A stretch of DNA of 64,000 bases from positions 19,285 to 83,284 of IMG/VR virus record IMGVR_UViG_3300027807_000001, one strand, 5' to 3'. Position numbers and translations under genes: made by a program. The notes under the pieces are model-generated. The model was not told the origin of the DNA, did no database searches, and worked only from the letters and a program-made list of their open reading frames with translations. Numbering within the stretch: the stretch's first letter is position 1; each line of letters starts with the position of its first letter. This DNA comes from a virus (taxonomy: Duplodnaviria > Heunggongvirae > Uroviricota > Caudoviricetes). Shown piece after piece: positions 19,396-59,916 of this stretch.

Positions 19396-19440
19396 ATTTC
19401 GCGGGGTCGCACCCTGCGGGTAACTTCCGCCTTTGGAAGA

Positions 19441-19793: not shown

Positions 19794-19795
19794 GT

Positions 19796-21615: not shown

Positions 21616-21622
21616 CCACTTT

Positions 21623-24945: not shown

Positions 24946-25292
24946 ATCATCCTAAAAATTGCTTAGTCTGTAGTGTACAACGCCCTACAGGTCGACTCGA
25001 GATGTGGGAGTATAAGGAAGGAGAAAAAACTATCGCCGGGTTAATTTTCGGAGATTCTAAAGGAAGATGGGAGGATGGTCATTGGATTCGCTCTTCTCTT
25101 CTCAAGAATCTCGACATCGAGAATGGTCACGCACTCACACTGAATTCCCTATACGTGCTTGGGGAAAGATCAAACAAGTGTCTTCGCTGTTATCGAGGCA
25201 CTGTCTCCGATGACAATCTATCAAGGCGTCTTGGAGCATGTGTAGCGTGTCAACAGAAGGGAATTGTCTCCAGCAAGGTATCAAATGAATAG
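24927..25292 (+). CDS. hypothetical Cys-containing protein
   Basis: 121 aa ORF. Confidence 0.45.
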   Translation: MVENSVNHPKNCLVCSVQRPTGRLEMWEYKEGEKTIAGLIFGDSKGRWEDGHWIRSSLLKNLDIENGHALTLNSLYVLGERSNKCLRCYRGTVSDDNLSRRLGACVACQQKGIVSSKVSNE

Positions 25293-39846: not shown

Positions 39847-40087
39847 TAAACTCTGCTGTTTAGTGAATAGAGTCTACGGAAACTCTCTTCGCGGAAAGAA
39901 TTATTGTGTTCGTTGCGACAAGATATTCTGTTCATTCACCTGCGAAGAAGAGACGCCTTGTGATACTCCTCAGCACAGGCACTTCACCTTCATCTTATTG
40001 CCGGGAACACAGTGGACTCCTAGCACGCACCCAGACAAAGAAGGCACAAGACAAAGGCTTGATTTAAGCCGTAACTACGATAAATGA
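39836..40087 (+). CDS. LCC-family mini-protein (LCCLVNR)
   Basis: MVDNKLCCLVNRVYGNSLRGKNYCVRCDKIFC. Confidence 0.55.
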   Translation: MVDNKLCCLVNRVYGNSLRGKNYCVRCDKIFCSFTCEEETPCDTPQHRHFTFILLPGTQWTPSTHPDKEGTRQRLDLSRNYDK

Positions 40088-41223
40088 AAAATCTAAACTC
40101 GTTGTTCATTGAGCATGGGCTTTATGATAAGCACACGCTAGATCTGTATGCGGAAAGACATACGGTACGCTTGCGTATGTCTGAAAGGCTACCCCATCTC
40201 GGCATCCTTCACTACCGAGATGATGTTGTTTTCGGGAAAGGTCAATGGACTGACTTTACAAAATCGTGCCGCGGAGTAGTTGTAGATTTCAATCAAAAGA
40301 AAATCTTGGCGCAAGGGTACAATAAGTTCTTTAACCTGGGAGAAGCTGAAGCGCCTTCACTCAGGGAGCTAGAAGCGAAGGGCGAATTTGTCGTGACAGA
40401 GAAGTTAGATGGATCTATGATTCTTCTCTTTTGGGATGAGACGACAAAACAGTTTGTCGCTACAACCAAAGGCTCGATAGACTCCGAGCAGGGCCAACAT
40501 GCCACAACACTAATCCCTTCTTCTGTCCGCGATGTTAAACTCGTTCAATCGCATACTTTAATGTTCGAGCTCATTTCCCCCAAGTATCAAATTGTCGTCC
40601 CGTACGACAAGATTGGGTACGAAGAAGGACTCTACTTGATCGGAGTTCGCGAGTTAAAGTCGGAGAAGATCTTCTCTCCTAAAGAAGTTCTCGCCTTTGC
40701 GAAAGAGTATAATCTCAAGGCATACAAGACTTACCCCTTCGCAAGTCTCCAAGCTGTCGTAGAGGATGTCAAAGAGCTCCCATACACTCGCGAAGGATTC
40801 GTTGTTGTTTACAACGATGCGATGGTAAAGATCAAAGGTAAAGAGTATCTGCGTGTCCATAGGTTCATCTCTACCCTCAGCGATAAGAACTTGTTGGATG
40901 TAATGATTGCAGGTGAAGATAAGAATGTTGTCGAGAACATAGGATCAGTTCCTGAGGAGTACAGACAGGACGTACTCGATACGTTTGCTAACTTCAAAAG
41001 AAAGGCGCTGGACTTTCAGAAGCAGTGCTACTCTTACTTCGCAGACGTAGTAGGAAAGATTCCTGCTGATACACAGAAGATTGAGAATCAGAAGAGGAAA
41101 GCGTTCGCAGCACATGTACAGTCAATCCCTGAAGAGTACAGAGGCTTCTTATTTAAGATGTATGATCACAAAGAGCCGGAACTGACTCAGATTTATATGC
41201 TGTTCAAGAGAAGAGGGGTATGA
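40084..41223 (+). CDS. ATP-dependent RNA ligase (Rnl-like nucleotidyltransferase)
   Basis: motif I TEKLDGSM (KxDG lysine nucleotidyltransferase); size and neighbourhood (CCA enzyme, Pnkp, tRNAs) fit an RNA repair ligase. Confidence 0.65.
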   Translation: MKNLNSLFIEHGLYDKHTLDLYAERHTVRLRMSERLPHLGILHYRDDVVFGKGQWTDFTKSCRGVVVDFNQKKILAQGYNKFFNLGEAEAPSLRELEAKGEFVVTEKLDGSMILLFWDETTKQFVATTKGSIDSEQGQHATTLIPSSVRDVKLVQSHTLMFELISPKYQIVVPYDKIGYEEGLYLIGVRELKSEKIFSPKEVLAFAKEYNLKAYKTYPFASLQAVVEDVKELPYTREGFVVVYNDAMVKIKGKEYLRVHRFISTLSDKNLLDVMIAGEDKNVVENIGSVPEEYRQDVLDTFANFKRKALDFQKQCYSYFADVVGKIPADTQKIENQKRKAFAAHVQSIPEEYRGFLFKMYDHKEPELTQIYMLFKRRGV

Positions 41224-44821: not shown

Positions 44822-45027
44822 ATAATTTAGCGTGTCTTATTAACGGGCACGAATGGCACGGAGAGTTCGACGCGAACGACCTTTCCCTACAAGCCTCTTT
44901 GGCTACGGGGTTCAAGGTGCTGTATGATAGCAAGGCTATCTGTTATTGGTGTAAAGAAAGAATTTTCTGGTCGTATAAAAATCCTAGTAGGCCTCGCTGG
45001 CAAACGTCAAAGGAAATAAATGGCTAA
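44818..45027 (+). CDS. Cys-rich subfamily B protein (LACLINGHEWHG), TTG start
   Basis: TTGA overlap. Confidence 0.45.
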   Translation: MNNLACLINGHEWHGEFDANDLSLQASLATGFKVLYDSKAICYWCKERIFWSYKNPSRPRWQTSKEING

Positions 45028-45901
45028 GCTTACCGTTTTAGTAGGACCGCCTGGCAGTGGGAAGAGCACCTACGCAAAGACTACTCAAGCGACATATATC
45101 AACCAAGATTCTCAAGGAAAGAATCATCTTAACTTGTTCAACGAGGCGCTTTCTCGGAAGGAAGATATAATTGTCGATAGGATGGGCTTTGACAAGGGGC
45201 AACGCGCCCGCTACATCGATCCAGCCAAAGCAGCTGGCTACGAAGTTAACATCCGTACCTTTGTCGTTCCTCGTAAGGTTTGTTTCGAGAGAGTGATGGC
45301 GAGAGTAGGACATGAGACCATCAAAGATGAGGTCGCAGCCAGATCAGCTATCAATCTCTTCTTCGCCAAGTACGATAAGCCTACGGATGCGGAAGGCAAG
45401 CTTGAGTTCGTTCAGTATGGTAGCCAGGATCTGGGCGGAGTTGTTCGCACCAAGCCTAAGGCTATCATTTGCGATCTCGATGGCACGATGTGCAACATTG
45501 ATCATCGGTTGCATTACGTGAAAAAGAATGTCGAGGGAGTTAAGCCTAACTGGTATATGTTCTTCAAAGGTATTCCTCGAGATACTCTCAATGAGTGGTG
45601 CGCTGATCTCGTTAGACGTTACAGCGGCGACCACCAGATCGTTTATTGTTCTGGGCGCGACGAAACTACGCGAGAGGTTACTGAGAAGTGGCTGAAGGAA
45701 CAGGGCGTATGGTTCGGTCATCTCTTTATGCGAAGTGCCGGCGACCACCGTCCGGATAATATCGTTAAGGAGATCTTACTAGACTTCGATATCCTTACTC
45801 AGTTTGATCCGGTACTCATGATCGATGATCGTCAACAAGTGACAGACATGTGGCGACGGCGTGGATTTATTTGTTTGCAGTGCGCGAAAGGCGATTTCTA
45901 A
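45020..45901 (+). CDS. polynucleotide 5'-kinase/3'-phosphatase (T4 Pnk-like)
   Basis: N-terminal P-loop GPPGSGKST kinase domain; C-terminal HAD motif CDLDGTM plus downstream MIDD; two-domain order as in T4 PseT. Confidence 0.8.
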   Translation: MAKLTVLVGPPGSGKSTYAKTTQATYINQDSQGKNHLNLFNEALSRKEDIIVDRMGFDKGQRARYIDPAKAAGYEVNIRTFVVPRKVCFERVMARVGHETIKDEVAARSAINLFFAKYDKPTDAEGKLEFVQYGSQDLGGVVRTKPKAIICDLDGTMCNIDHRLHYVKKNVEGVKPNWYMFFKGIPRDTLNEWCADLVRRYSGDHQIVYCSGRDETTREVTEKWLKEQGVWFGHLFMRSAGDHRPDNIVKEILLDFDILTQFDPVLMIDDRQQVTDMWRRRGFICLQCAKGDF

Positions 45902-46501: not shown

Positions 46502-47044
46502 ATGGCTAAGAAAGTGACGTTAAAGAGTCAATCAGCGATCTGGTGGGCAAGAACCAAGAAGTCAGATGCCTTAACCACTCTCTGGCTTCAGAAACAGTTT
46601 ATGGGCGAGGCTCGCGCGGCCGCTCGTCTAAAAGCGTACCTAGACAAGTTTAATCTTAATACTAAGGTTAGAAAGATTGTCCAGGTCATCGCTATGCAGG
46701 AAGGCGCCCACGCTGGATGGATTGCAGATCTTCTCCAGACAAGAAAGGCTTTACCTGATTTAGATCATGAGGATCGTTACTGGAAACATACTCTCAAGAA
46801 CATCAAATCTTTTGACGATATGTGCGGAGTGGCTTGGGCTGCAGAGAACATGCGCTTGGTACGAATACGTACTATCGTTGAAGACACTAAAGCCCCTAAG
46901 GATATTCGCTCTACCTTCCAAAAGATTCTTAAGGATGAGATCTTCCACGAGAAGGCATTCCGTGCTTTATCTTCAACTTCTTCTAAGAAGAAAGCGCTGG
47001 TCAAGCATTCCGAAGGGATGAAAGCAATTGGATTATTCGCCTAA
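46502..47044 (+). CDS. ferritin-like di-iron protein (possible MiaE-like tRNA hydroxylase)
   Basis: two E...ExxH pairs (GEARAA...EGAH and ENMRL...EIFHE) typical of di-iron carboxylate proteins; the tRNA hydroxylase assignment is inference from context. Confidence 0.5.
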   Translation: MAKKVTLKSQSAIWWARTKKSDALTTLWLQKQFMGEARAAARLKAYLDKFNLNTKVRKIVQVIAMQEGAHAGWIADLLQTRKALPDLDHEDRYWKHTLKNIKSFDDMCGVAWAAENMRLVRIRTIVEDTKAPKDIRSTFQKILKDEIFHEKAFRALSSTSSKKKALVKHSEGMKAIGLFA

Positions 47045-49209: not shown

Positions 49210-49340
49210 ATAATCTCTGTTGCACGGTAAATCCCGTCCTAAGGTGTGAGGTGTGTAAGTACTCGTACTGTCGGGATCATACATATCTGTGGCGGCGTCA
49301 TCACCTCACAAAAAGATATAGGGCATTAAGTATAATATGA
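49206..49340 (+). CDS. LCC-family mini-protein (LCCTVNP), 44 aa, 3' end runs through promoter copy 8
   Basis: ATGA overlap; MNNLCCTVNPVLRCEVCKYSYC. Confidence 0.45.
   Translation: MNNLCCTVNPVLRCEVCKYSYCRDHTYLWRRHHLTKRYRALSII
49304..49338 (+). promoter_or_regulatory. promoter-like element (copy 8)
   Basis: CCTCACAAAAAG-N15-TATAAT; 77 nt upstream of the MoxR gene. Confidence 0.5.
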
Positions 49341-49414
49341 TACAAGCTTCGCAGTTTGCACAAAGTTTGTATAGAAAGATCTTGTCGTAGCTACAGCAGC
49401 AAAGGAGGAGTAAG

Positions 49415-50467
49415 TTGAGACCACTCGAAGTTGAAGAAGTCCTCAAATCGATTATCAGCAAGGGAGTTAAGTGTCCTGTCGTTGTGAAGGGAGACGCCGG
49501 AATCGGAAAGAGCCAGGTCATCCAGAAGGTTGGTCGGGACTTGGGCATGCACGTGATTGATTTGCGTCTTGCCCAGATGGAGCCGGGAGATTTGATTGGT
49601 CTTCCCCGGACCGACCCGGAATCCCACAAGACGGTGTGGTACGCTCCGGAGTGGTGGCCTTCGAAGAGCGATAAGGGGACTATCGTATTCTTCGACGAGC
49701 TCAATCGCGCGCCTGTCGATGTGCGACAGGCGGTTTTCCAGGTGCTGACGGAGTATAAGATGCACACGCACGTCCTCCCTGAGAACACCTTCCTCGTCGC
49801 GGCTATCAACCCTGATGAGGGCGGCAAGATGAATTACCAGGTCGAGCAGTTCGACCCCGCCATGGTAAATCGCATGTGCTTCATCTCCATGGAACCTGAT
49901 GGGCAGCAGTGGATCAACTGGGCCACCGCTGCGGGCGTGCATGAGATGGTGATTAAGTTTATCGCCGTCAATACCGCGATGTTGTACGCCGGCAGCGAGA
50001 CGGGCCCTTTCCCGTCGCCTCGCTCGTGGGTCCGCTTGTCGGATCTGATGAATGCGAATGCGATTCCGGCGTCAGCCCAATCGGAGGTTATCTCCGGCCT
50101 GATCGGTGAGAAGCCGGCGATCTCGTTCATTCGCTTCTTGGATAAGTCTTACAAGAAGCCGGTGAGCGGCAAGGAAGTCCTGGAATCGTTCGCGAAGTTC
50201 AAGGACAAGATCAAGGCGCAGAAGAACGACGAGAACTTCGTTACGATCTCGGAGCTCGTCGGTCTCCTGGGCGACGGAGCGAAGCTGAAGAAGGATCAGC
50301 TGACCAACGTCACCGACTTCGCCTTGGCGTTGAAGCAAGAGGAGAAGATGGCCTTGCTGAAGAAGCTGCCGAATTCTCTTCTGTCGAAGCTCGGTCAGAC
50401 CTCGCAGGACCTGTGCAATACGATCGCCTCTATCGCGGCTGAAATGGACAAGGAAAGAGGGCGGTAA
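49415..50467 (+). CDS. MoxR-type AAA+ ATPase
   Basis: TTG start with strong SD AAAGGAGGAG; Walker A GDAGIGKSQ, Walker B IVFFDELNRAP, MoxR-type sensor region. Confidence 0.85.
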   Translation: MRPLEVEEVLKSIISKGVKCPVVVKGDAGIGKSQVIQKVGRDLGMHVIDLRLAQMEPGDLIGLPRTDPESHKTVWYAPEWWPSKSDKGTIVFFDELNRAPVDVRQAVFQVLTEYKMHTHVLPENTFLVAAINPDEGGKMNYQVEQFDPAMVNRMCFISMEPDGQQWINWATAAGVHEMVIKFIAVNTAMLYAGSETGPFPSPRSWVRLSDLMNANAIPASAQSEVISGLIGEKPAISFIRFLDKSYKKPVSGKEVLESFAKFKDKIKAQKNDENFVTISELVGLLGDGAKLKKDQLTNVTDFALALKQEEKMALLKKLPNSLLSKLGQTSQDLCNTIASIAAEMDKERGR

Positions 50468-50534
50468 GGTCTAAGTGATTCTGCGCCCGTACGGGGCCCT
50501 TTATTCGATTCGGGGGACAAGGTTAAAATCGAAA

Positions 50535-50600
50535 GTTAGTCACGGTAATTATCATCTGCGAGCGTAGGAAGGGTATCGATGATAAATCCGTGCACAATTT
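50535..50600 (+). promoter_or_regulatory. bipartite leader element (copy f) GTTAGTCACGG-N42-CCGTGCACAATTT, directly before ATG 50601
   Basis: conserved flanks with nested stem TATCATC/GATGATA. Confidence 0.45.
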
Positions 50601-50908
50601 ATGATTGAACTCCAAGATAGTAATTCTTTTGATCAAGAGGTAGCACAGGGATTAACACTAGTCGACGTGGGGGCCCCCGGTGCGCTCCGTGTAGAGCTTT
50701 AGCTCCAACTATAGAAGCAGTAAGTACCATCCTAGTGGGCAAACTTAAGGTAGTAAAGATAAACGCGGACGAACATACGGAGCTAGTAAATAAGTTAGGT
50801 GTCCATAGTATTCCGACTATTTTATACTACAAAGATGGCGCTCTAGTTAGACGCAGCGTCGGAGTAACAGACCAAGCCACTATTACTGCGGTTGTTGCAT
50901 CACTCTAA
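50601..50908 (+). pseudogene. thioredoxin-like gene interrupted by a -1 frame change in a G5C5 run (50669-50678)
   Basis: frame 0 gives MIELQDSNSFDQEVAQGLTLVDV then stops at 50700; a shifted frame continues GGPRCAPCRALAPTIEAV...IPTILYYKDGALVRRSVGV (CxxC active site and thioredoxin C-terminus). May be a sequencing error or a real frameshift. Confidence 0.6.
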
Positions 50909-51040
50909 AGACACGAACCAGCTTTGCTGTTAAATCCCTCTAAGGAACAAGGACGGTAATTGTGTTGCATTGAAATATAGGAGTCTACCCGTTAGGTAAA
51001 CTCCTCCCTGGACGGTAAACTTCCAACCGTATAAATGGAA

Positions 51041-51082
51041 GAGTTAGCCACTCGCACGCCAGGTGCGGGTGCACAATTCATG
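51041..51082 (+). promoter_or_regulatory. bipartite leader element variant (GTTAGCCACTCGCACG-N-GGGTGCACAATTCATG)
   Basis: 3' flank identical to copies at 19778 and 50588; abuts ATG 51080. Confidence 0.4.
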
Positions 51083-51322
51083 ACGAATCAGAATAAAGCA
51101 AGAGGGGATGGAACAGATCTATGTTGTCTAGTTAACCCTTATAGACGGCATCGAAATTGTTCTTATGCTTTTTGCATAGCTCATTACTGGAACGAATCCC
51201 GCGCACGAGCAGGACTAGGGCCACTGCAAGACGTAGCAAATACTCTTGACGGCAAATGTATTCGATGTGGTAAGGATGCAAGCACTGAAGCTGAATGGGA
51301 GTACGTTGTTGAAGAAAGCTAG
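51080..51322 (+). CDS. LCC-family protein (LCCLVNP)
   Basis: MTNQNKARGDGTDLCCLVNPYRRHRNCSYAFC; close paralog of 52435-52686. Confidence 0.55.
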   Translation: MTNQNKARGDGTDLCCLVNPYRRHRNCSYAFCIAHYWNESRARAGLGPLQDVANTLDGKCIRCGKDASTEAEWEYVVEES

Positions 51323-51512
51323 GCTGTGCTGTTTAATAAACACCCACACAGCGTGTTCTGTTTGCGAAAAGAAGTGGTGTGCACCTCATTGGGTGCAGGA
51401 AGGGGCTAGTCATTATTTTTTCAAGACGGCGGGAAACCTCGAATACAGTTGCAACGGCTTATCTTTAATAAGAAGTGAACCTTGCGGAATCTACCTCAAA
51501 GTCTCTACTTGA
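51276..51512 (+). CDS. LCC-family mini-protein (LCCLINT), start uncertain
   Basis: KARLCCLINTHTACSVCEKKWC. Confidence 0.5.
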   Translation: MQALKLNGSTLLKKARLCCLINTHTACSVCEKKWCAPHWVQEGASHYFFKTAGNLEYSCNGLSLIRSEPCGIYLKVST

Positions 51513-51564
51513 GAAGCAAACTGAGATGCGGTTATAGTGATTCGAACAATCTTGGAGATAAATA

Positions 51565-51903
51565 ATGAAACCTGCCACTTTACTTTCTAGAGAAGATATT
51601 GTATTACTACTAGAGCGCGCGCGTAGCCGGCGAATGTTCAGCGCAGAGGACCTCAGAGAATTCGCTTCAAATCTGCCGGATGACAAAGCATTTGCGCTGT
51701 CGCGACTACTCCCGAAAGATATTCAAGAGAAACTTCTCTCTCATAGAGACCAGACCTTTGCAGACAAGGTATTAAACTTTTGGAGTTCAATTTCAAAGGA
51801 AGGAGCCTTAGTAGAAGTAACTAAGGCTAAGGTTGCCGATGATCAGTTTTTAGTAACTCATGCAATCCCGTTGCTTACACTTATTGGGGTTGAAGGTTAC
51901 TAA
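51565..51903 (+). CDS. hypothetical protein (112 aa)
   Basis: ATG ORF, not Cys-rich. Confidence 0.5.
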   Translation: MKPATLLSREDIVLLLERARSRRMFSAEDLREFASNLPDDKAFALSRLLPKDIQEKLLSHRDQTFADKVLNFWSSISKEGALVEVTKAKVADDQFLVTHAIPLLTLIGVEGY

Positions 51904-52081
51904 ATAGTAGGTGTTTATAGAGATGTTTATGCCACGCACTTGTAGTGAGTTGTAGCTCGTGAGCCCCAATAAAGGGGGTGCGTCTGGTTAGATTATTGAC
52001 GTACTCACCGAACTGCTAAAACAAGATCGTAATAGCGGTAATGTTCGGGAGATAAAAATCCGAATCCTGAGGATAGATTTT

Positions 52082-52285
52082 ATGCAGACAGATCAACAGT
52101 TGTGTTGCATTATTAATCCAAGGTTCACCTGCGATAGATGCAAACAAAAGAGTTGTGAGGACCATTTCTTCGCCTGGCGCAATATCCATAAGATACCTTC
52201 GTACAAAGAGTCGTTACACAACAACGCCCATTGGTATTGCGAAAGTGCACGAGGATATATCGGAAGATATGGTAGACCAGTCTAA
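52082..52285 (+). CDS. LCC-family mini-protein (LCCIINP)
   Basis: MQTDQQLCCIINPRFTCDRCKQKSC. Confidence 0.55.
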   Translation: MQTDQQLCCIINPRFTCDRCKQKSCEDHFFAWRNIHKIPSYKESLHNNAHWYCESARGYIGRYGRPV

Positions 52286-52454
52286 GCGCTTGTGCTGCAT
52301 CGTTAATGAGATCGTCAAATGCGAAGACTGCGGCTATGGTATTTGTAAAGGTCACTTCTTCAAGAAGAGGGCTAGCAGCAGAACAAGATGTCTAAAGTGT
52401 TTCCGCAAGCAGATCATGCGGCACAGGCAAGGGAATGAACAACCTAAAATCTAA
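52269..52454 (+). CDS. LCC-family mini-protein (LCCIVNE)
   Basis: MVDQSKRLCCIVNEIVKCEDCGYGIC. Confidence 0.55.
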   Translation: MVDQSKRLCCIVNEIVKCEDCGYGICKGHFFKKRASSRTRCLKCFRKQIMRHRQGNEQPKI

Positions 52455-52686
52455 AGGAGACGGTACAGATTTATGTTGTCTAATAGCGCCTATTCGGAAG
52501 TGTTTAAACTGCGGTCTTACGCTATGTAATGACCACTGGTGGAATTCTGCTAGGGATTTGTTAGGGCTGTCTCCTCTGCCGACAACCGGAGGGGAGGATC
52601 CCCACGCTGTATGCCCTAGATGTTTTTATGCCAAAAAAGCTACATCTAAAGAGTTAGAGAGCTTACGCACCTGGGAAATTGCATGA
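52435..52686 (+). CDS. LCC-family protein (LCCLIAP)
   Basis: KGDGTDLCCLIAPIRKCLNCGLTLC; paralog of 51080. Confidence 0.55.
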   Translation: MNNLKSKGDGTDLCCLIAPIRKCLNCGLTLCNDHWWNSARDLLGLSPLPTTGGEDPHAVCPRCFYAKKATSKELESLRTWEIA

Positions 52687-52913
52687 AGTATTTTACTAGA
52701 TGGGGATTTGAGCCAGGAAACGCCTCCACTGGATTCGAATTTGGTAATCGAGAATTATACTCAACTGATTGGGATCGACAAGAGAGATGGCGTCTAGTAG
52801 GGAATATCCTTACAGGATACATAGCTATCGGCCGCTTTAGAACAGCTCTTAAATTTTACCACCCCGGTTCCTGGCGATTCTATATGATTTTGGTTCATCC
52901 AACTCGCGGATAA
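52683..52913 (+). CDS. hypothetical protein (not Cys-rich)
   Basis: ATGA overlap; 76 aa. Confidence 0.45.
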   Translation: MKYFTRWGFEPGNASTGFEFGNRELYSTDWDRQERWRLVGNILTGYIAIGRFRTALKFYHPGSWRFYMILVHPTRG

Positions 52914-52929
52914 TTACGAGGGTTTCATA

Positions 52930-53151
52930 ATGAAACTTTGCTGTATCGTTAATCCCTACACCATATGCATTTGTAACATGCAGTTTTGCTCACAATGCCT
53001 CGGAGATACTTCTAGAGATTCCTCTTTAGGAGGAGGGCACATTGTGCAAGTGAACAGTGCATGGGATGGTCGAGGACGATGTACAGTTACTGGGAAGATA
53101 GTGATCTGCTCACCTAAGCAGAAGAATACCGACCCGTGGCGATTAATATAG
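52930..53151 (+). CDS. LCC-family mini-protein (LCCIVNP)
   Basis: MKLCCIVNPYTICICNMQFCSQC. Confidence 0.55.
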   Translation: MKLCCIVNPYTICICNMQFCSQCLGDTSRDSSLGGGHIVQVNSAWDGRGRCTVTGKIVICSPKQKNTDPWRLI

Positions 53152-53160
53152 AGAGGGCAG

Positions 53161-53358
53161 ATGGAGATTAAATGGTTTAAGAAGTACAGACCCCTCTGCT
53201 GCATCGTTAACCCAGTAGCATCTGAAGATACGCGTTCATACTACGATGGATACCAGACTTATGTGAAGAAAGTTTACTGCTGCGAAGCTGTAAACAGATG
53301 TGCTGATCATCATGCACCAGGATGTTGGAGAAGAATTAAGTGGCACCCGGTTGTTTAG
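53161..53358 (+). CDS. LCC-family mini-protein (LCCIVNP)
   Basis: YRPLCCIVNPVASEDTRSYYDGY. Confidence 0.55.
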   Translation: MEIKWFKKYRPLCCIVNPVASEDTRSYYDGYQTYVKKVYCCEAVNRCADHHAPGCWRRIKWHPVV

Positions 53359-53371
53359 TTTGTCTTATTAA

Positions 53372-53517
53372 TCCAACACCATCGCTGCCTAGCAAATGCT
53401 ATAGCTGTCTTGTAGAAGGAAAGTGCGCAGAGCATCATGCCGATAATTGTATAAGAAAAGTTATTTGGCGACTACAACAAAGTTTAGAAGAGTTATCGAA
53501 ACCATCCGAGGATTAAA
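53372..53517 (+). CDS. Cys-rich variant (LVCLINP...CYSC), GTG start
   Basis: shifted-Cys variant, short. Confidence 0.35.
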
Positions 53518-54785
53518 TGGACAAAATACAAAAAGCGCAGATAGCATTACTTACTTCTAATGGTATCTTCTACGCTGCCCTCATGCAACAGATGAATCGC
53601 ATTGAAGGGAAAGATGTCCTCCCTAAGGATGCTCTCGCTGCTGTTCTCGTCCAGAACGGTCGTATCAATCTTTATACGAACTGCGAACTCTACGACAAGT
53701 TTAATCTTGATCAGATGTGTCGAATCTTGGAGCATGAGATGCTCCACGTGATCTTAGAGCATGGTAGCCGTTGCCCGAGCGGCGCAGGTTCTCTGTGGAA
53801 TATCGCATCAGATCTTGCCGTTAATTCATTAATCCCCGGCATGGATTTAGGGCTTCTTCCTGGTAAAGATCAGTTCAAAGATTTCCCCCTTGCCAAGTCT
53901 GCCGAATTTTACTACGGTCTGTTAAAGGATAAGCAGGGCAAAGGCGACTTATCTATTGACAAAGATGGCGATGTAAGTATGAAGGGTAAGGGCGGAAAGA
54001 TGGAGAAGGTAAAGACGGGCAAGTGCCCCTCTACTGAAAAGAGCGATTCTAAGTCCTCCGACGCGGAAAAGCTTGCCAAAGAAGTAGTTAAGCAAGCGGT
54101 TGCAGAAGCGATGGCAGAATCGTCTAGAACAGCCGGCGGCGCTCCTGCTGGACTTGAATCTATCATTGATGATCTTCTGAAGAAGAGCACCGTTAATTGG
54201 AAAGCAGTCCTTCGCCAGTTCGTCGGCTCTGCAGTCAAGTGTGGATCCAAATCTACCTGGAAAAGACAGTCCCGTCGCTTTGGAGATACGCAGAAGGGCA
54301 AGATGCCCGACCGAATGTTAGAGGTGGCAGTCGCTATCGATACCTCGGGGTCTATCACAGATGAAGATCTTGCCGAGTTTGTTGGTGAGATGAAGGGTAT
54401 CTTGAAGTCATACAAGTCAAAGATTCACGTCGTTGAGTGTGGCACATCCGTCGACAGGGCCTACGATCTTAAGCCGCATACCAAGATCAATTCAAAGTTC
54501 TTCGGTCGCGGCGGCGGAGACTTACGCCCCCCGTATGAATACTTCAAGGAAAAGAGGAAGAAGCCCAATGTATTAGTGTATTTTACGGACTGCTATGAAC
54601 AAGCTCCCGACAAAGAAACTATCAAGACTTTGTGGGTACGACCGAGTCAGGTTGACGGTACTAAGCCGCCTGAGATGCCCTTTGGCAAAGTTCTGCAGAT
54701 CCCTCGCCGGGGAGATTCTAGATCAGGCTACTGCCCTATTTGTAATCAGCCGGGGTGTAATTGTAACACGGCGGCGCGTCGCTAA
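53517..54785 (+). CDS. vWA-domain protein with N-terminal HExxH putative metallopeptidase domain (MoxR partner type), paralog 1
   Basis: HEMLHVILEH near the N-terminus; MIDAS motif VAIDTSGSI in the C-terminal vWA domain; 422 aa. Confidence 0.75.
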   Translation: MDKIQKAQIALLTSNGIFYAALMQQMNRIEGKDVLPKDALAAVLVQNGRINLYTNCELYDKFNLDQMCRILEHEMLHVILEHGSRCPSGAGSLWNIASDLAVNSLIPGMDLGLLPGKDQFKDFPLAKSAEFYYGLLKDKQGKGDLSIDKDGDVSMKGKGGKMEKVKTGKCPSTEKSDSKSSDAEKLAKEVVKQAVAEAMAESSRTAGGAPAGLESIIDDLLKKSTVNWKAVLRQFVGSAVKCGSKSTWKRQSRRFGDTQKGKMPDRMLEVAVAIDTSGSITDEDLAEFVGEMKGILKSYKSKIHVVECGTSVDRAYDLKPHTKINSKFFGRGGGDLRPPYEYFKEKRKKPNVLVYFTDCYEQAPDKETIKTLWVRPSQVDGTKPPEMPFGKVLQIPRRGDSRSGYCPICNQPGCNCNTAARR

Positions 54786-54794
54786 GGATGATGA

Positions 54795-55025
54795 TTGAAT
54801 AAACTTTGCTGCCAAGTTAACACATACCTACTGTGTGAGGGATGTAACGCAAGGTGGTGTTTGACATTCCACATTAGTGGAATGTCAGAGGACCATCCTT
54901 ACGTCGGAGCAGACCGCTGGAGATGCCCTGTTGTCCAAGAAGTTCAGCGTCGCTATGCAGGAAGGCGCCATATCTTTTATGTTAGGGCTAACGAGGTAAA
55001 CCTAAATGGGTTACGCATTAACTAA
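54795..55025 (+). CDS. LCC-family mini-protein (LCCQVNT)
   Basis: MNKLCCQVNTYLLCEGCNARWC. Confidence 0.55.
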   Translation: MNKLCCQVNTYLLCEGCNARWCLTFHISGMSEDHPYVGADRWRCPVVQEVQRRYAGRRHIFYVRANEVNLNGLRIN

Positions 55026-55464
55026 GATACTTTTGTACGGAATTGAAGTTCCAGAAGAAGTAGCAGAGCGAATATATAACGACCCAGATTGCTACGACGA
55101 AGGTGAGTGTATTATCCTGGAAGCTCCGTATGAGGCAGGCGTATTGAAATCTATAAAGCACGAGCCCTGGATGGCTCAAGATGATGATAATTCTAGGTAC
55201 GAAGTAGAATTATTATCAGATGGAACAGACTCTAGAATCGAGTCACTTACATTTGAACCGGGATTTCAACATTACTTCGGAGTCTCATTGGCATTCAAGG
55301 GGTACGGCAGTGACGATAATCTGTCGGGAAAATTTCATCACCCAGTAACGGCTAAACATCCTGAAGCAATTGATAGGTGGAGCAAGTATGCTCTTCCTAT
55401 TTTATTAAAACACATGAAAGAAGTACCCAAGCCAGATTTGCATACAATAGGACAAACATGGTAG
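55006..55464 (+). CDS. hypothetical acidic protein (152 aa)
   Basis: ATG ORF. Confidence 0.5.
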   Translation: MGYALTKILLYGIEVPEEVAERIYNDPDCYDEGECIILEAPYEAGVLKSIKHEPWMAQDDDNSRYEVELLSDGTDSRIESLTFEPGFQHYFGVSLAFKGYGSDDNLSGKFHHPVTAKHPEAIDRWSKYALPILLKHMKEVPKPDLHTIGQTW

Positions 55465-55976
55465 AAGAGATTTGGAAGACAGTACCATCGAACGACGACT
55501 ACGCTGTGTCGAACTTTGGGCACATCAAGAGGACCAGGTGGGTCAATGGCGCCAAGCGCGCGGGTCGTTCTTTAGGATACAACTGCGAGAGCGGCTATAG
55601 AGAAGTAGCATTCTATGACACTAAGCATAGGAAGACAGTTAGACTTATACACCAAGTTGTCGCAGAAGCATTCTTAGGACCTTGCCCCCCAGGCAAAGAA
55701 ATTAATCATAAAGATGGGAATAAGCGTAACAATAGATTAGACAATCTGGAGTACGTGACTCCCAGCCAGAACATCCGGCATGCTATCGAGACAGGGCTAC
55801 TTGTACCTGTACGCGGGACTCAAGTCAGCACTTCTGTGCTAACGAACAGGCAAGTTCGGCGAATACGGGAGCGGTTTAAAAAAGGAGCGTCGATGTCGGA
55901 TATTGCTAGACGTCTCAAGATAGGATTGACTACTGTTTCGGACATTGTTAATCGGCGTACTTGGACACATATTTAA
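55458..55976 (+). CDS. HNH homing endonuclease with NUMOD4-like N-terminus and C-terminal HTH
   Basis: WKTVPSNDDYAVSNFGHIKR (NUMOD4-like), HQVVAEAF...NHKDGNKRNNRLDNLEYV (HNH core), C-terminal helix-turn-helix. Confidence 0.75.
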   Translation: MVEEIWKTVPSNDDYAVSNFGHIKRTRWVNGAKRAGRSLGYNCESGYREVAFYDTKHRKTVRLIHQVVAEAFLGPCPPGKEINHKDGNKRNNRLDNLEYVTPSQNIRHAIETGLLVPVRGTQVSTSVLTNRQVRRIRERFKKGASMSDIARRLKIGLTTVSDIVNRRTWTHI

Positions 55977-55997
55977 TAAGATGGTCCTGAGGAGAAT

Positions 55998-56276
55998 GTG
56001 AGCAGCCAGGATACTCTAGACGATGATAGAGCAGACAGAGTACCTTTCAACGGGCTCTGTTGTCAAACCAACCCTGTTCTGGTCTGTGAAGGGTGCGGCG
56101 TACGCTGGTGCAATGATCATGAACTATCATATAGATGGCGAGATGCTATCTCGCATAGGAACTTGGGATACTCTATACCGAAAAAAGAATGTTGTTGGGA
56201 TTGTCCAGTGGTGGGACACGTTCGACGCGTAGAGCCTCGCGTTAAAGACGCACCTTGGGCCTTCAGATCATTCTAA
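55998..56276 (+). CDS. LCC-family protein (LCCQTNP), GTG start
   Basis: GLCCQTNPVLVCEGCGVRWC; close to 54795 (CEGCNARWC). Confidence 0.5.
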   Translation: MSSQDTLDDDRADRVPFNGLCCQTNPVLVCEGCGVRWCNDHELSYRWRDAISHRNLGYSIPKKECCWDCPVVGHVRRVEPRVKDAPWAFRSF

Positions 56277-56336
56277 TCAGATTTACGCTAATACGCACCG
56301 GAGACTATATTCTATGTCCAATGCACCGAGCGGAAA

Positions 56337-56618
56337 ATGACTTTCAATAAAATCTTACTGGCGTATGCCATTGGATTTGTAGTCGCTCCATTTATTTCAG
56401 GTAAACTGGTCAAAGTGCCTCCCGAGCAAGCGGAGCAAAGAGTCTGGGTGGACTTGATTATCGCATGTATGTGGCCTGCATTCGCAGGATTTGTAATACT
56501 GCTAACGATCGTTAGTCTCCCCACCATTCTTAAAAATCTATCGAATAGACTCTCTGCTAAGTTAGAGGCTAAGCGGGAAGTCAAGAAAGTTCTAAGCGAT
56601 CTTGGAGTAAAAGAATGA
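56337..56618 (+). CDS. membrane protein (two transmembrane segments)
   Basis: hydrophobic. Confidence 0.5.
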   Translation: MTFNKILLAYAIGFVVAPFISGKLVKVPPEQAEQRVWVDLIIACMWPAFAGFVILLTIVSLPTILKNLSNRLSAKLEAKREVKKVLSDLGVKE

Positions 56619-57058
56619 CAGTATTCAATGTTACGTTGAAGGATAAGGATTATGTCATCAAAAGCTTTGATAAGATGAGAAACGTCAAAGCTATTAAACT
56701 CAAGAGACTGCTGGCGAAAGTTCCCGCTTGGGAAAGAGAAATAACGCGCCTTGAGGATACTACTCCCCTCGCTCTTCTGAAAGAAAGACTAGCTCTTCTA
56801 GAAAAGCTGTCTAAAGAAGAAGGGCTATCTTATAACAAACAAGGAACCCTTTCTTATTCAAAGGGGGCAGTCACTTTCGACGACCTTCGCAGCAGAATTT
56901 GCACACACCAAGACGGCTCTGTTTCTCTCGATGTATATGTCCCTAGGAGTAAGTATGGCGCGTACCGCTCACCGAGCGACAGGGTGTTGCGTATCTTCGT
57001 GGGAGATACCACACGAATAACTAACACAATCCTGCAGCACCTACTAAAGAAGGTGTGA
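56615..57058 (+). CDS. hypothetical protein (147 aa)
   Basis: ATGA overlap. Confidence 0.5.
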   Translation: MTVFNVTLKDKDYVIKSFDKMRNVKAIKLKRLLAKVPAWEREITRLEDTTPLALLKERLALLEKLSKEEGLSYNKQGTLSYSKGAVTFDDLRSRICTHQDGSVSLDVYVPRSKYGAYRSPSDRVLRIFVGDTTRITNTILQHLLKKV

Positions 57059-57173
57059 GTGCGTAGCATTAAAATGAACTTGCCTATCCCCTGCAAGCAA
57101 GTAATGGGTTTTCCTTCGTCTGAGAAAAACGGGGATGCCGTCACAATATACGAAAGGAAGAAAGGGTGATTCC

Positions 57174-57518
57174 ATGAAAATTGGACGAAAGGTGCTAGAA
57201 TCGTGGCGTCGATTCCTGAGTAATATTTTGATCGCCCTTGGAGCCAAGGAATATATGCCAGCGCCTGCACCCATCAACACAATTGAAGCCATACTCTCAA
57301 CTCTGAATGGTGGTCCAACGGGCCCCTGGGTAACCGTTGAAGGCTATCATGCGGTTTCAGTTCCGATAGTTAGTTCTAACTTCGTTAATTTTACTCCCCC
57401 AAATCCGGGCGGAATTATTTTGAAGACGTTTTTTAATACGGCAACGGGAGAGGTCCGCTTTTATGCGGCTAAGTTCCTGAATATCCCAGAGGGTGAGAGA
57501 GAGTTTCTTTTTCGGTAA
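57174..57518 (+). CDS. hypothetical protein
   Basis: SD AAGGGTGATTCC then ATG; track start 57135 is earlier. Confidence 0.45.
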   Translation: MKIGRKVLESWRRFLSNILIALGAKEYMPAPAPINTIEAILSTLNGGPTGPWVTVEGYHAVSVPIVSSNFVNFTPPNPGGIILKTFFNTATGEVRFYAAKFLNIPEGEREFLFR

Positions 57519-57702
57519 ATCTCATGTCCCCAGCTCCAACCAAAGCCGTTTTGGCCGAATCAGTTTCGCAATTAGCTCAAAAAGTCGTCGCGACGCGGAG
57601 TATGCAGGAGAAGTCTTTCTCTCGGAGAGAGTATAACTTTGCCATGTAACATCTTCTCCCCGGGTACTCCACTTGAATGTAGGAAGTAACTGTGATACCA
57701 CA

Positions 57703-57738
57703 CCTCACAAAAAGCCTCGTAGGCGTTTAGTATAATAT
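57703..57738 (+). promoter_or_regulatory. promoter-like element (copy 9)
   Basis: CCTCACAAAAAG-N16-TATAATAT; 67 nt upstream of ORF 57805. Confidence 0.5.
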
Positions 57739-57804
57739 ATTATCAGCGGTAACCGCGAATAGCTTATTGCTGGCAACAAAATATATCTCGTACGGAGAGA
57801 CAAA

Positions 57805-59016
57805 ATGTCTATGGACAAGATGCAGAAGGCGCTGATCCATCTGCTGGGCGGCGACGGCATCTTTTATGCATCTCTGTTGATGCAGATGAGAACAATTGAC
57901 GGGAAGGATCTCCCCAAGGATGCTCTCGCCGCGGTCTCCGTCCAAAACGGACGGATTCAGTTACACATTGATCCCCCTCGCTTAGAGCCATTTTCCGTTG
58001 ATCAGGTCGCCCGGATCTTAGAGCATGAGTGCTTACATCTTGTGCTAGAACACATCGGCCGCATGGAAAATCGGCACCCTTACCTTTGGAATATCGCTAC
58101 GGACCTTGCAGTGAATTCGTTGATCAACGGCATGGATATGGGATTGCTCTGCGGCAAGGAGCCTTTTACAGATATCCCTGAAAAGAAGTCGGCCGACTTC
58201 TACTACGCGATCCTTCGCGACAAATATGATATGAAGGAGGTTACCTTCAACGCCGACGGCACCGTTACCGTTAAAGATGGTAAGACCGGCAAATCGGTGA
58301 CGTTGAAGCCTACAGGTGATCATAAAGATTGGGAGAAGTCTTCGAGTTCCGCAGCTGAAGCTTTGGCGAAAGAGGTAATTAAGCAGGCGGTGGCAGAAGC
58401 CGCGGCTTCTGCCAAAGCTGCAGGCAAGTGGCCTGCGGGTGTGAAAGAGCTTGTTGACGACCTGCTTGGTGCAGAGAAGATTAACTGGAAGAGGTTGTTG
58501 CGCCAGTATATCGGTAATAAGGTTAAGTCTGGCCAAAAGAATTCATGGAAGCGAGAGAGTAAGCGATTCGGGGAGATGCAGAAAGGTAAGCTGAAGAATC
58601 GCATCGTTAAGATAGGTGTCGCTATCGATACCTCTGGGTCTGTCAGCTCTGCCGAACTTCAGGAATTCATGAACGAGATCAACGCTATCATGGGCTCTTA
58701 TAAGACAGATATTACGATCTTAGAGTGTGACGCTGCTGTGCAGAAAGTTTACACCATGAAAAGGCATATGAAGGTTGATCCTAAGTTCGCCGGCAGGGGA
58801 GGAACTTCTTTTATTCCTCCTTATGAATACTTCAAGGGCGTAGGCAAAGGTAAGCGCCCGGAGCTACTTGTGTATTTTACGGATGCTGAAGGAACTGCTC
58901 CTGCTACTGAAGAAATCAAGACCGTGTGGGTGATTACCTCTGCTTCTAGCATTGAAACCATGCCTTGGGGCAGAGTACTGAAAATTCCGCGAGATGAAGG
59001 AAAGAGGAAGCGCTAG
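57805..59016 (+). CDS. vWA-domain protein with N-terminal HExxH putative metallopeptidase domain, paralog 2
   Basis: HECLHLVLEH; VAIDTSGSV MIDAS motif; collinear with 53517-54785. Confidence 0.75.
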   Translation: MSMDKMQKALIHLLGGDGIFYASLLMQMRTIDGKDLPKDALAAVSVQNGRIQLHIDPPRLEPFSVDQVARILEHECLHLVLEHIGRMENRHPYLWNIATDLAVNSLINGMDMGLLCGKEPFTDIPEKKSADFYYAILRDKYDMKEVTFNADGTVTVKDGKTGKSVTLKPTGDHKDWEKSSSSAAEALAKEVIKQAVAEAAASAKAAGKWPAGVKELVDDLLGAEKINWKRLLRQYIGNKVKSGQKNSWKRESKRFGEMQKGKLKNRIVKIGVAIDTSGSVSSAELQEFMNEINAIMGSYKTDITILECDAAVQKVYTMKRHMKVDPKFAGRGGTSFIPPYEYFKGVGKGKRPELLVYFTDAEGTAPATEEIKTVWVITSASSIETMPWGRVLKIPRDEGKRKR

Positions 59017-59327
59017 TGGTAATTGCAGGGCTACTTATTGCTGTAGCAATACTAATCTGCGGCATACTTTACTTTCTCGGGATGGTCAGCGGCGTCCTTC
59101 GCAACCTAATCAAAGAGCTTAGGGAGGAAAGAGAATTAATCTTACTTCAGAAGCAAATCGTGTCACTTACTGCGAAGGAAGTAGCAATCCAGCGATCCCT
59201 GATTGACAAGCGGTACGAGATGATGGTCAATACTCTTACCATGATGAAGCTGATTGCTGACAAACAGGCTGACCCTGTTTGGGCAAAAAAGTTCGATGAA
59301 GGGCGTGAAAACTCGAAGTGGAATTAA
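59016..59327 (+). CDS. membrane-anchored coiled-coil protein
   Basis: ATGA/TAGTG overlap; N-terminal transmembrane segment. Confidence 0.5.
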   Translation: MVIAGLLIAVAILICGILYFLGMVSGVLRNLIKELREERELILLQKQIVSLTAKEVAIQRSLIDKRYEMMVNTLTMMKLIADKQADPVWAKKFDEGRENSKWN

Positions 59328-59718: not shown

Positions 59719-59916
59719 ATGTTTTGTCATAAGTGCGGGAATCAGATTCCGGAAGAGCGGCTGGAAATTTTACCGGAGACCCGGGTATGCGTTAGCTGCT
59801 CAACTGAGCCGCCTTACCGCGGCTTCGTAAGCACTACTCCTCGTCATAAGGGCACAGAACTTTCAATTACGAAAGATCCTGAAGCTGCCGCTCAAATGGA
59901 TCGATACCGAATTTAA
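59719..59916 (+). CDS. TraR/DksA-like C4 zinc-finger protein
   Basis: CHKCGNQIPEERLEILPETRVCVSC matches TraR/DksA C-terminal finger spacing. Confidence 0.5.
   Translation: MFCHKCGNQIPEERLEILPETRVCVSCSTEPPYRGFVSTTPRHKGTELSITKDPEAAAQMDRYRI

Follow-up and report, generated by a model that had tools for sequence, protein, structure and literature searches.

A MoxR-type ATPase with two zincin-like vWA partners, one with an altered metal site, in a jumbo-phage genome fragment

NorQ and CbbQ2 are MoxR ATPases that work with vWA partner proteins. In the NorQ-NorD system, the vWA domain of NorD carries a beta-sheet "finger" that is inserted into the NorQ pore (PMC13036017), and the T534V replacement, which affects the MIDAS threonine of NorD, leaves NorQ binding intact but abolishes the function on the target. 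[quoted passage not shown] (2021) described a MoxR ATPase and a metallopeptidase-vWA protein as a chaperone-cochaperone pair of group 2.2 jumbo phages (PMC7824862). Genetic data come from Vequintavirus, where the MoxR ATPase bas54_0063 is dispensable on E. coli K-12 and is needed against the predicted defence system DS-28; in that preprint only the ATPase, and no peptidase-vWA gene, is reported as required against DS-28 (HIDEN-SEQ, 10.1101/2025.11.20.689424). Here we describe a locus in which one ATPase most likely serves two adaptors that arose from one duplication, and in which the metal site of one of them, copy A, has been rebuilt.

The source DNA is a fragment of a jumbo-phage genome; in the following, "the window" denotes the whole 64-kb stretch that was analysed. 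The three open reading frames of the module lie on its plus strand (Table 1), and tblastn finds exactly one copy of the ATPase and two of the vWA protein in the window. An earlier interpretation, made from the letters alone (the sequence-only reading), had assigned a TTG start with a Shine-Dalgarno sequence to the ATPase, and this assignment is borne out. The frame has a stop at 49388-49390, the earliest start codon thereafter is the TTG at 49415, and the GGAGG core of the Shine-Dalgarno sequence occupies 49404-49408, at a spacing of 6 nt when counted from the core. The TTG start is required because the next Met is residue 45, which is C-terminal to the Walker A motif, and the public gene call (P0121) has the identical 350 aa. 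For paralog B, the public gene call starts at 57811.

Table 1. Features of the module and of its surroundings, in coordinates of the window
Feature	Position	Strand	Remark
Promoter-like element, copy 8 of 9: CACCTCACAAAAAG, 14 nt, GTATAATAT	49302..49338	+	5' of ATPase transcription unit
Shine-Dalgarno AAGGAGGA	49402..49409	+	5 nt 5' of ATPase TTG start
MoxR-type (NorQ/CbbQ-like, N4 gp24-like) AAA+ ATPase	49415..50467	+	350 aa, intact
Spacer, ATPase to A	51035..53358	+	small Cys-rich "LCC" ORFs and gene 51565-51903
Paralog A, zincin-like and vWA-like, 422 aa	53517..54785	+	Pfam, motifs
A: HEMLHVILEH, residues 73-82	53733-53762	+	
A: vWA DTSGS	54339-54353	+	
A: ECG, not ECD	54435-54449	+	
A: GGGD, not GGT	54504-54521	+	
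A: TDxxE, not TDxxG	54582-54599	+	
A: C-terminal tail CPICNQPGCNC	54732-54764	+	
Spacer, A to B	54795..57518	+	LCC ORFs, unknown ORFs, homing endonuclease
LCC ORFs, A-to-B spacer	54795-55025; 55998-56276	+	
Unknown ORFs, A-to-B spacer	55006-55464; 56337-56618 (hydrophobic); 56615-57058; 57135-57518	+	
HNH_3 and NUMOD4 homing endonuclease	55377-55976	+	likely start ATG 55458
Promoter-like element, copy 9 of 9	57701..57738	+	directly 5' of paralog B
Paralog B, zincin-like and vWA-like, 403 aa	57805..59016	+	Pfam, motifs
B: HECLHLVLEH, residues 74-83	58024-58053	+	
B: conserved basic beta-hairpin SWKRESKRFGEMQKGK	58543-58590	+	
B: vWA DTSGS	58627-58641	+	
B: ECD	58723-58737	+	
B: GGT	58792-58809	+	
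B: TDxxG	58876-58893	+	
Small ORF, 103 aa, hydrophobic N-terminus	59016..59327	+	GTG start overlaps B stop codon

When up to 2 mismatches are allowed, a promoter-like motif consisting of CACCTCACAAAAAG, 14-15 nt and GTAWAATAT occurs in 9 copies, all on the plus strand, against 0.47 expected by chance. Two of these precede the ATPase and the second vWA gene, as had been proposed from the letters, and none of the nine lies directly before paralog A. The HNH endonuclease and the LCC genes that had been placed between the module genes are also found there, the former by its match to HNH_3 and NUMOD4. Some of the small neighbouring genes recur in related viral loci: loci L004 and L011 each contain homologs of the gene at 51565-51903 (112 aa), located between the ATPase and copy A, and of the 103-aa ORF, overlapping the end of gene B; the A-to-B interval of L004 also includes a homolog of the ORF at 56615-57058. 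It is uncertain whether the 103-aa ORF is part of the module.

The ATPase had been assigned to the MoxR group rather than to the dynein-like proteins or McrB, and this assignment holds. In Pfam, AAA_5 matches with 28 bits (cut-off 22) and AAA_3 falls just under its cut-off (26.5 against 27); the PHROG family is phrog_1297. When an AlphaFold model of the ATPase (pLDDT 91) is compared with the PDB using Foldseek, ranks 1-19 are occupied by NorQ and CbbQ2 (E = 3e-11 to 3e-9), followed by MCM, RFC and RuvB; dynein appears earliest at rank 45, and McrB is absent among the 50 matches listed. Profile-to-PDB comparison matches the whole AAA module to midasin, NorQ, CbbQ and MoxR 2r44, and to McrB only partially. 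Judged from the predicted structure and these profiles, the ATPase is nearer to the MoxR members than to McrB, dynein and other AAA+ clades. Against the PADLOC defence models, it gives only marginal P-loop matches (E = 0.003), and A and B give none.

The catalytic motifs of the ATPase are intact. GDAGIGKS at residues 26-33 serves as Walker A and VFFDE at 91-95 (with D94 and E95) as Walker B; in an alignment of 60 homologs G26, G29, G31, K32 and E95 are invariant. N132 (within AAINP) and R153 are likewise invariant and, from their positions in the AAA+ fold, would be sensor 1 and the arginine finger, respectively. A conserved loop, EPGDLIGLP (56-64; D59, G62 and P64 invariant), may be the helix-2 insert; in the model, a helix at 57-61 is followed by strands at 63-66 and 73-76, and short strands, possibly the pre-sensor-1 beta-hairpin, precede 125-131. 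Residues 160-350 form an all-helical C-terminal half.

The two paralogs of about 410 aa align over their full length with 51% identity (E = 7e-130), and both contain the N-terminal HExxH motif. The Pfam search suggested earlier gives DUF2201_N and DUF2201 matches of 79.5 and 86.4 bits in A and of 84.4 and 84.7 bits in B, well over the cut-offs (23.2 and 26.4); in addition, phrog_1314 covers the full-length partner (E = 7e-69). The sequence-only reading of one ATPase with a duplicated vWA partner is confirmed. DUF2201_N is labelled "putative metallopeptidase" in Pfam, and the N-domains have secondary matches to the SprT-like, Peptidase_M48 and PhageMetallopep families. Six residues do not vary among 69 homologs and occur in both A and B: H74, E75, H78, H83, D100 and N104. 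Solved zincins are matched only weakly in sequence (E = 0.04-0.5), and the hhalign probability against E. coli SprT is just 16%; a direct fold match of the N-domain was not obtained because vWA matches dominated the search. The C-domain does have the vWA fold. The importance of HExxH is supported by the B ortholog in L011, where a LAGLIDADG intein is inserted exactly between HE and C of the HECxH motif; the long second vWA ORF in L021 suggests the same arrangement.

In zincins, the HExxH glutamate is the catalytic base. This bears on the possibility that the module is a chaperone for metal-cofactor insertion, like NorQD, CoxDE and CobST, in which the HExxH domain would bind the metal or the target and would not be a protease. 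Such a role would fit the finding that, among solved structures, the ATPase is nearest to CbbQ and to NorQ, which acts in iron insertion; it would also fit the target specificity conferred by the N-domains of NorD and CbbO, and a rubrerythrin-like gene located 2.4 kb upstream of the module. However, metal binding alone would not need the glutamate, which is invariant family-wide, the N-domains match peptidase families only, and the loci compared share no conserved metalloenzyme neighbour, so that we regard this role as decidedly unlikely.

Between the N-domain and the metal site, strands 243-252 and 256-265 form a hairpin that runs directly into strand 268-275, which ends in DTSGS. Sequence conservation in the family is highest in this hairpin ([SN][KR]R[FY]GxxQKG), which by its secondary structure may correspond to the NorD "finger". 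The proposal that both vWA domains carry the MIDAS motif DTSGS stands as far as the motif itself is concerned (residues 275-279 in both), whereas the complete MIDAS is found in B and not in A. Paralog B has all five positions (D275, S277, S279, T334 and D360), a set that is canonical for the family. In paralog A the threonine is replaced by G (T334G), as it is in 14 of 14 A-lineage sequences, while T is found in 100% of the 107 other homologs compared (B lineage and outgroup). The A-lineage-specific changes cluster at the metal face (T334G, D309G/S, A310T, Q313D and G363E): the ECD aspartate is lost and acidic residues are gained. Most A-lineage sequences also have a Cys4 tail at the C-terminus.

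In a neighbour-joining tree, the A clade is sister to the B clade, and the two paralogs go back to one duplication event within this clade of phages; L004 and L006 maintain the gene order ATPase, A, B. One might suppose that A is in decay or has a purely regulatory role without being active itself, and that the duplication has no functional meaning, given the loss of an otherwise invariant threonine and the lack of an A copy in L010, which has only B within 10 kb on either side. The latter observation indicates that A is dispensable in some phages. Nevertheless, at least 13 sequence clusters contain intact A orthologs that retain all the zincin invariants, identical substitutions have become fixed throughout the lineage together with the gain of a conserved Cys4 tail, and gene A has a good Shine-Dalgarno sequence. 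Moreover, synonymous sites are saturated, yet the ORFs are intact and protein identity is still 60-68%. Decay of A therefore seems very improbable. Since the metal site is canonical in B and altered in A, the single ATPase most likely works with two adaptors that recognise their targets differently.

Among 80 related IMG/VR viral loci, 68 have the ATPase on the same sequence stretch as a vWA gene, the gap between the two has a median of 19.5 nt, and either gene may come first. Both genes are present in N4-like, PA5oct-like and Thermus phages, and the ATPase and its peptidase-vWA partner are a widespread phage gene pair.

Our preferred reading, to which we give roughly an even chance, is that the module is a remodelling protease that is powered by ATP and works within the infected cell, a machine of the N4 gp24/gp25 type with two substrate adaptors. 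The NorQ/CbbQ-like ATPase would form a hexameric ring. Each partner has three parts: a predicted zincin domain of SprT/M48-like type (HExxHxxxxH...D...N), a linker that is flexible and variable, and a compact vWA domain with the conserved basic beta-hairpin in front of it. By analogy with NorQ-NorD, the hairpin and vWA domain would dock in the ring pore and the MIDAS face would bind an acidic residue of the target protein; remodelling of either the target or the linker, driven by ATP hydrolysis, would then allow cleavage of the target by the zincin domain. Such a machine would be non-structural, with an early or middle function on host or phage proteins, and would not be a virion component. 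The gene context suggests such a role inside the infected cell: the neighbours of the module are Pnkp, an Rnl1-like ligase, a CCA-adding enzyme, tRNAs and a tmRNA, and one N4-like phage has the pair flanked by RNAP1 on one side and by nucleotide-metabolism genes on the other.

Maturation of the particle had been offered as one option by the sequence-only reading, and Iyer et al. proposed a role in virion assembly for the jumbo-phage pair by analogy with the MoxR-vWA proteins of Acidianus two-tailed virus (PMC7824862); the pair would help to fold or assemble tail or capsid proteins, which the zincin would process. The place of the pair among the N4-like core genes suggests a basic function, and the PA5oct ATPase EST35_0335 is annotated "ESI-MS/MS" from virion mass spectrometry, that is, it was detected in particle preparations, which fits either a virion-linked role or carry-over. 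The gene context, however, does not favour this option. Structural genes were not found near the module within the window. The annotated genes around the N4-like, PA5oct-like and Vequintavirus loci likewise include none, except for a UE-M3 gene labelled "Hoc" and, at a distance of about 3 kb in PA5oct, two small structural proteins. In addition, disruption of the Vequintavirus ATPase is tolerated on E. coli K-12, seven of the proteins identified by mass spectrometry are classed as "virion-unrelated enzymes" in the PA5oct paper, and the annotation of the PA5oct vWA gene EST35_0340 has no ESI-MS/MS note. On balance, virion assembly is an unlikely role.

The remodelling-protease reading may be extended, although we think this unlikely, to an ATPase that switches between the two adaptors as a two-substrate or regulated remodeller. 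B would use an ordinary metal-dependent MIDAS contact, while D335, E361 and the Cys4 tail of A would make a metal-independent or self-occupied site, so that A would either be directed at a second protein or act as a gate on the ATPase. The remodeller would act on host proteins, e.g. components of defence systems, and this would fit the one genetic result on a phage MoxR ATPase. If true, this would provide a first function for the N4 gp24/gp25 core pair.

Of the known systems, NorQ-NorD and CbbQ-CbbO provide the best structural matches of the ATPase, at 14-20% identity, and the beta-hairpin of the phage partner leads into the MIDAS strand as the NorD finger does. The phage proteins differ from these in that about 190 residues of additional helical sequence make up the C-terminal half of the ATPase, that the adaptor carries a zincin-like N-domain in place of that of NorD or CbbO, and that its vWA domain is compact, at 125 residues. 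The closest named cellular homologs of the ATPase are "MoxR family ATPase" proteins of Thermotogota. In Oceanotoga sp. DSM 15011, a 360-aa ATPase (34% identity over 61% of the phage ATPase) is directly followed by a single 392-aa DUF2201_N/DUF2201 protein in an overlapping two-gene operon on the chromosome; bacterial operons of MoxR and DUF2201 genes presumably represent the TM0930 subfamily (Snider and Houry 2006). Vequintavirus ATPases match that of the window at 28% identity (E = 2e-21), and bas54_0063 is, from its genus, probably an ortholog; the relative Bas56 likewise encodes a DUF2201_N/DUF2201 "metallopeptidase", but in Vequintavirus the partner gene is about 4 kb off on the opposite strand. 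The group 2.2 jumbo phages have the identical domain architecture, and PA5oct-like phages match both queries; one pair per phage was described there, with no duplication or MIDAS divergence reported (PMC7824862). N4 gp24/gp25 belong to the same two families (phrog_1297 and phrog_1314, the latter with DUF2201_N and DUF2201) and lie on the same strand, at about 25% identity to the present module, and a homing endonuclease often separates the pair in N4-like phages (in UE-M3, ATP-binding 059, HNH 058 and VWA 057). Whereas N4-like phages have a single adaptor adjoining the ATPase, this phage has two, each about 3 kb from the preceding module gene and one with an altered metal site.

A tblastn search of the window detects one MoxR-type ATPase gene and exactly two genes for its partner (adaptor) protein, the paralogs A and B. 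What is new here is a conserved arrangement of one motor with two adaptors, one of which has a rebuilt metal site. The two paralogous HExxH-vWA genes proposed by the sequence-only reading are borne out: both lie on the + strand, their products align over the full length with 51% identity (E = 7e-130), and both products match the Pfam families DUF2201_N ('putative metallopeptidase') and DUF2201 ('VWA-like') with 79-86 bits. A and B also match phrog_1314 along its full length. We rejected the label of this family, 'HNH endonuclease', since neither protein contains an HNH domain; the label probably derives from adjoining or inserted homing endonucleases. The same label for DUF2201_N/DUF2201 has spread to many RefSeq phage annotations (NC_070871.1, NC_071039.1, NC_023719.1 and others).

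Across 69 partner homologs, H74, E75, H78, H83, D100 and N104 are invariant (residue numbers on B), as are D275, S277, S279, G330, G332, G333 and D360. The secondary Pfam matches of N-domain members are to peptidase families only (SprT-like in 15, M48 in 10 and PhageMetallopep in 5 of 23), and the alignments of the N-domain with M48, minigluzincin, BepA, HtpX and E. coli SprT are weak, in register and each centred on HExxH. In a fold search, the list of matches was taken up by vWA domains. The assignment of the N-domain as a putative zincin is well supported at the level of sequence. Given what is established for zincins, the invariance of the HExxH glutamate speaks for proteolysis by the partner proteins rather than for metal binding alone.

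The ATPase also agrees with what had been proposed, namely a MoxR-type protein with a TTG start and an SD. Its ORF opens past TAG 49388-49390, and the earliest available start is the TTG at 49415, with AAGGAGGA upstream at 49402-49409. This start is required because the next Met falls beyond the Walker A motif, and a public gene call (P0121) is the same protein. In Pfam, AAA_5 exceeds the cut-off and AAA_3 is just under it; among phage families, phrog_1297 is matched at 1e-65. All 60 homologs compared keep Walker A (G26-S33), Walker B (D94, E95), N132 and R153, as well as D59, G62 and P64, which lie in a loop that we read as a putative helix-2 insert. The 19 best PDB matches of its AlphaFold model (pLDDT 91) are NorQ and CbbQ2, and the family profile covers the whole AAA module in midasin, NorQ, CbbQ and the MoxR structure 2r44, but McrB only in part. 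Since both types of match favour NorQ, CbbQ and MoxR, a grouping with dynein or McrB, which would have refuted the proposal, is not supported. NCBIfam yielded no match, an initial IMG/VR scan with the ATPase as the only query found nothing, and a PADLOC defence-system search gave nothing meaningful.

Locations of the features discussed (window positions unless a locus is named)
Feature	Location	Strand	Remark
MoxR-type AAA+ ATPase	49415-50467	+	350 aa
Paralog A	53517-54785	+	422 aa
C-terminal tail of A, CPICNQPGCNC	54732-54764		residues 406-416
HNH_3/NUMOD4 homing endonuclease ORF	55377-55976		between A and B
Paralog B	57805-59016	+	403 aa
Promoter-like copies	8144, 8213, 13691, 17913, 28329, 34314, 43225, 49302, 57701	+	
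tmRNA	623-992		tag peptide DKSLLAVANEIVNNAFARELAVA
tRNA-Met	19795-19870		
tRNA-Val	21544-21618		
tRNA-Arg-TCT	24271-24343		
tRNA-Leu-TAA	42084-42169		
BCS1-like AAA ATPase	25264-26457		
Calcineurin-like phosphoesterase	26790-27467		
SPFH/Band 7	31559-32449		
CCA-adding/poly(A) polymerase-like	36440-37819		HD domain
T4 Rnl1-like RNA ligase	40084-41223		
Polynucleotide kinase-phosphatase	45020-45901		
Rubrerythrin/ferritin-like	46502-47044		
DksA/TraR-type zinc finger	59719-59916		
Split ATPase gene, L070	3277-5525		
Split ATPase gene, L077	2392-4632		
Split ATPase genes, L066 and L074	about 11001-13347		

The source of the window is a 210-kb metagenomic contig, so its phage is a jumbo phage. 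The gene order ATPase, A, B is preserved in two related contigs (L004 and L006), and in a neighbour-joining tree the orthologs of A and those of B form sister clades, which indicates that a single duplication, at the root of the clade to which this phage belongs, probably gave rise to the two genes. Among 80 IMG/VR loci, one ATPase gene with two partner genes occurs only in L021, a locus of the same clade; the related locus L010 has B alone, with no A within 10 kb on either side. Another locus, L076, carries two complete vWA-ATPase pairs (9953-12314 and 16881-19469) about 5 kb apart, which is another route to duplication than that of the window.

The zincin invariants are all retained in both the A and the B lineage. 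In the vWA domain, the motifs ECD, GGT and TDxxG after DTSGS are common to B and every one of the 88 homologs that are more distant; in every sequence of the A lineage, the MIDAS threonine is G (T334G), the ECD aspartate is G or S, and the G of TDxxG is E. A310T is fixed in this lineage, and most members have Q313D. In addition, 9 of 13 representatives of the A lineage share a conserved C-terminal CP[VI]CNxPGCNCN tail, which is lacking in the B-lineage sequences inspected; it might alter docking, because NorD touches NorQ via its C-terminus. Synonymous sites are saturated between orthologs while the reading frames are intact, which speaks for both copies being under purifying selection; this saturation left no dN/dS ratio for A or B, the sole ratio obtainable being that of the ATPase against L004 (0.11). 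The alternative that A is a dead duplicate, which is to be weighed against these intact frames, we consider very improbable.

A mechanism for a functional A and B can be proposed from NorQ-NorD. There, one NorD binds per NorQ hexamer and inserts a beta-sheet 'finger' of its vWA domain into the pore, in contact with the helix-2 inserts; the target is recognised through acidic residues that bind to the MIDAS face, and a linker is remodelled by ATP hydrolysis (PMC13036017, PMC9976466). The NorD MIDAS mutant T534V keeps NorQ binding and loses target activation (PMC9976466). B is modelled with two strands of ten residues each (243-252 and 256-265) that feed straight into the strand ending in DTSGS and bear the best-conserved sequence of this protein family. 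This hairpin would be the counterpart of the NorD finger, and the low-confidence segment 141-180 would be that of the flexible linker. Because T534V separates binding from activation, A would by analogy keep its binding to the ATPase, and its target recognition would differ from that of B. The A/B clade is a natural experiment, with a shared motor and adaptors differing mainly at the predicted target-binding face, and comparing the binding partners of A and B could show what its targets are.

It is in or next to conserved, needed genes that inteins and free-standing homing endonucleases tend to be found. In locus L011, the B ortholog (760 aa; ORF 6948-9230) contains a LAGLIDADG intein exactly inside HE/CxH, between E and C, which starts at Cys (CLPAGT...) after ...MEHE and ends with ...VSHN ahead of CMHLV; its position marks the motif as conserved and as one whose integrity the phage needs. 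The comparable length of the second vWA ORF of L021 (6541-8832) suggests the same insertion, as does the match of a 774-aa representative (P0241) to the query, and other long family members that match the query in two stretches (P0275, P0328, P0344) may hold further ones. The ATPase genes of several IMG/VR contigs are interrupted by insertions of about 1-2 kb, giving two ORFs; the interruptions may represent introns, inteins or inserted homing endonucleases. HNH genes repeatedly adjoin the module across loci. As listed, with GTG as its start, the HNH ORF of the window shares 88 nt with the ORF before it; the more likely start is ATG 55458, directly ahead of the NUMOD4 motif, which would leave an overlap of 7 nt.

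Both this HNH gene and the LCC genes (small Cys-rich ORFs) had been placed within the module, and both are found there. The LCC family comprises 37 small + strand ORFs at 1749-62591 (46-157 codons stop to stop; for example, 51035-51322, 52082-52285, 54795-55025 and 55998-56276), each of which has LCCx[VILT]N at the N-terminus, in most cases with P next, ahead of Cys/His pairs reminiscent of mini zinc fingers. Fourteen of them, at 48.8-56.3 kb, are interleaved with the ATPase/vWA module, and relatives have similar short matches. Stop-codon recoding as the cause of the few long ORFs was rejected: whichever single stop was reassigned, the gain in ORF content was about the same, and the scarcity simply reflects the abundance of small genes in the region.

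The promoter-like element, CACCTCACAAAAAG followed after 14-15 nt by GTAWAATAT, occurs in 9 copies with at most 2 mismatches, all on the + strand, where 0.47 would be expected by chance. Copy 8 precedes the ATPase gene and copy 9 precedes B, as previously noted, and none stands directly before A, so A is probably transcribed from the ATPase promoter and B from its own. The CACCTCACAAAAAG box stands where a -35 element would, suggesting promoters of a class specific to the phage; scanning for generic promoters and terminators was uninformative. At the end of B, the ORF 59016-59327 (103 aa, hydrophobic N-terminus) has a GTG start that overlaps the B stop codon (TAGTG), and its homologs overlap the B gene end in L004 and L011. 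In the relatives L006, L010 and L011, the module is followed at 2-3 kb downstream by a ClpS gene; none was found among the window ORFs scanned downstream of B.

An intracellular, non-structural role of the pair is favoured by the gene context of the window, by the neighbours in N4-like phages and Vequintavirus, and by a transposon screen; we take it to be about evenly poised between right and wrong. The 64-kb window contains no structural genes; besides a tmRNA and four tRNAs, it encodes a CCA-adding enzyme, a Pnkp-like kinase-phosphatase and an RNA ligase of the Rnl1-like kind, which together look like a tRNA-repair set, as well as the BCS1-like AAA, SPFH and rubrerythrin-like proteins. In UE-M3, an N4-like phage, RNAP1 and nucleotide-metabolism genes flank the pair; in Vequintavirus, its surroundings include rIIA/rIIB and an anti-sigma factor. 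In the transposon screen, a Vequintavirus MoxR ATPase was dispensable on E. coli K-12 and required against a predicted defence system, DS-28, which belongs to E. coli CFE311; a peptidase-vWA gene was not reported there (10.1101/2025.11.20.689424). Iyer et al., who described the pair in jumbo phages, proposed a role in virion assembly (PMC7824862), and the PA5oct ATPase has a virion mass-spectrometry note; however, the PA5oct paper concedes that some such matches are 'virion-unrelated enzymes', and we regard this role as unlikely. A role of the pair in metal insertion seems to us distinctly unlikely. The observation of a duplicated MoxR-vWA pairing is confirmed and its interpretation supported, while the intracellular function is what we infer.

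The ATPase and zincin-vWA pair itself is a described, annotated and widespread module of phages and bacteria, and the finding is mostly confirmatory. The window has no nucleotide similarity to known phages. By tblastn, the partner gene was found in 269 and the ATPase in 811 phage records, which include N4-like, PA5oct-like, Vequintavirus, Thermus and Bacillus jumbo phages, and in an exhaustive search with the vWA query alone, 16,774 cluster representatives had E <= 0.001. Of the 80 IMG/VR loci, which were selected by the partner gene, 68 also contain the ATPase (median gap 19.5 nt; both gene orders), and 9 of the 12 without it end at a contig end. The pair is very common, frequent in jumbo phages and core in N4-like phages, where genes 24 (unknown) and 25 (vWFA) count among 14 core genes (PMC4193335). 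In UE-M3, the genes for the ATPase, an HNH endonuclease and the VWA-like protein are consecutive, and in the 2.84-Mb chromosome of Oceanotoga sp. the pair forms an overlapping operon. The cellular group is presumably the TM0930 subfamily of MoxR proteins, reportedly treated by Snider and Houry in 2006. The closest studied system to the phage pair is NorQ-NorD.
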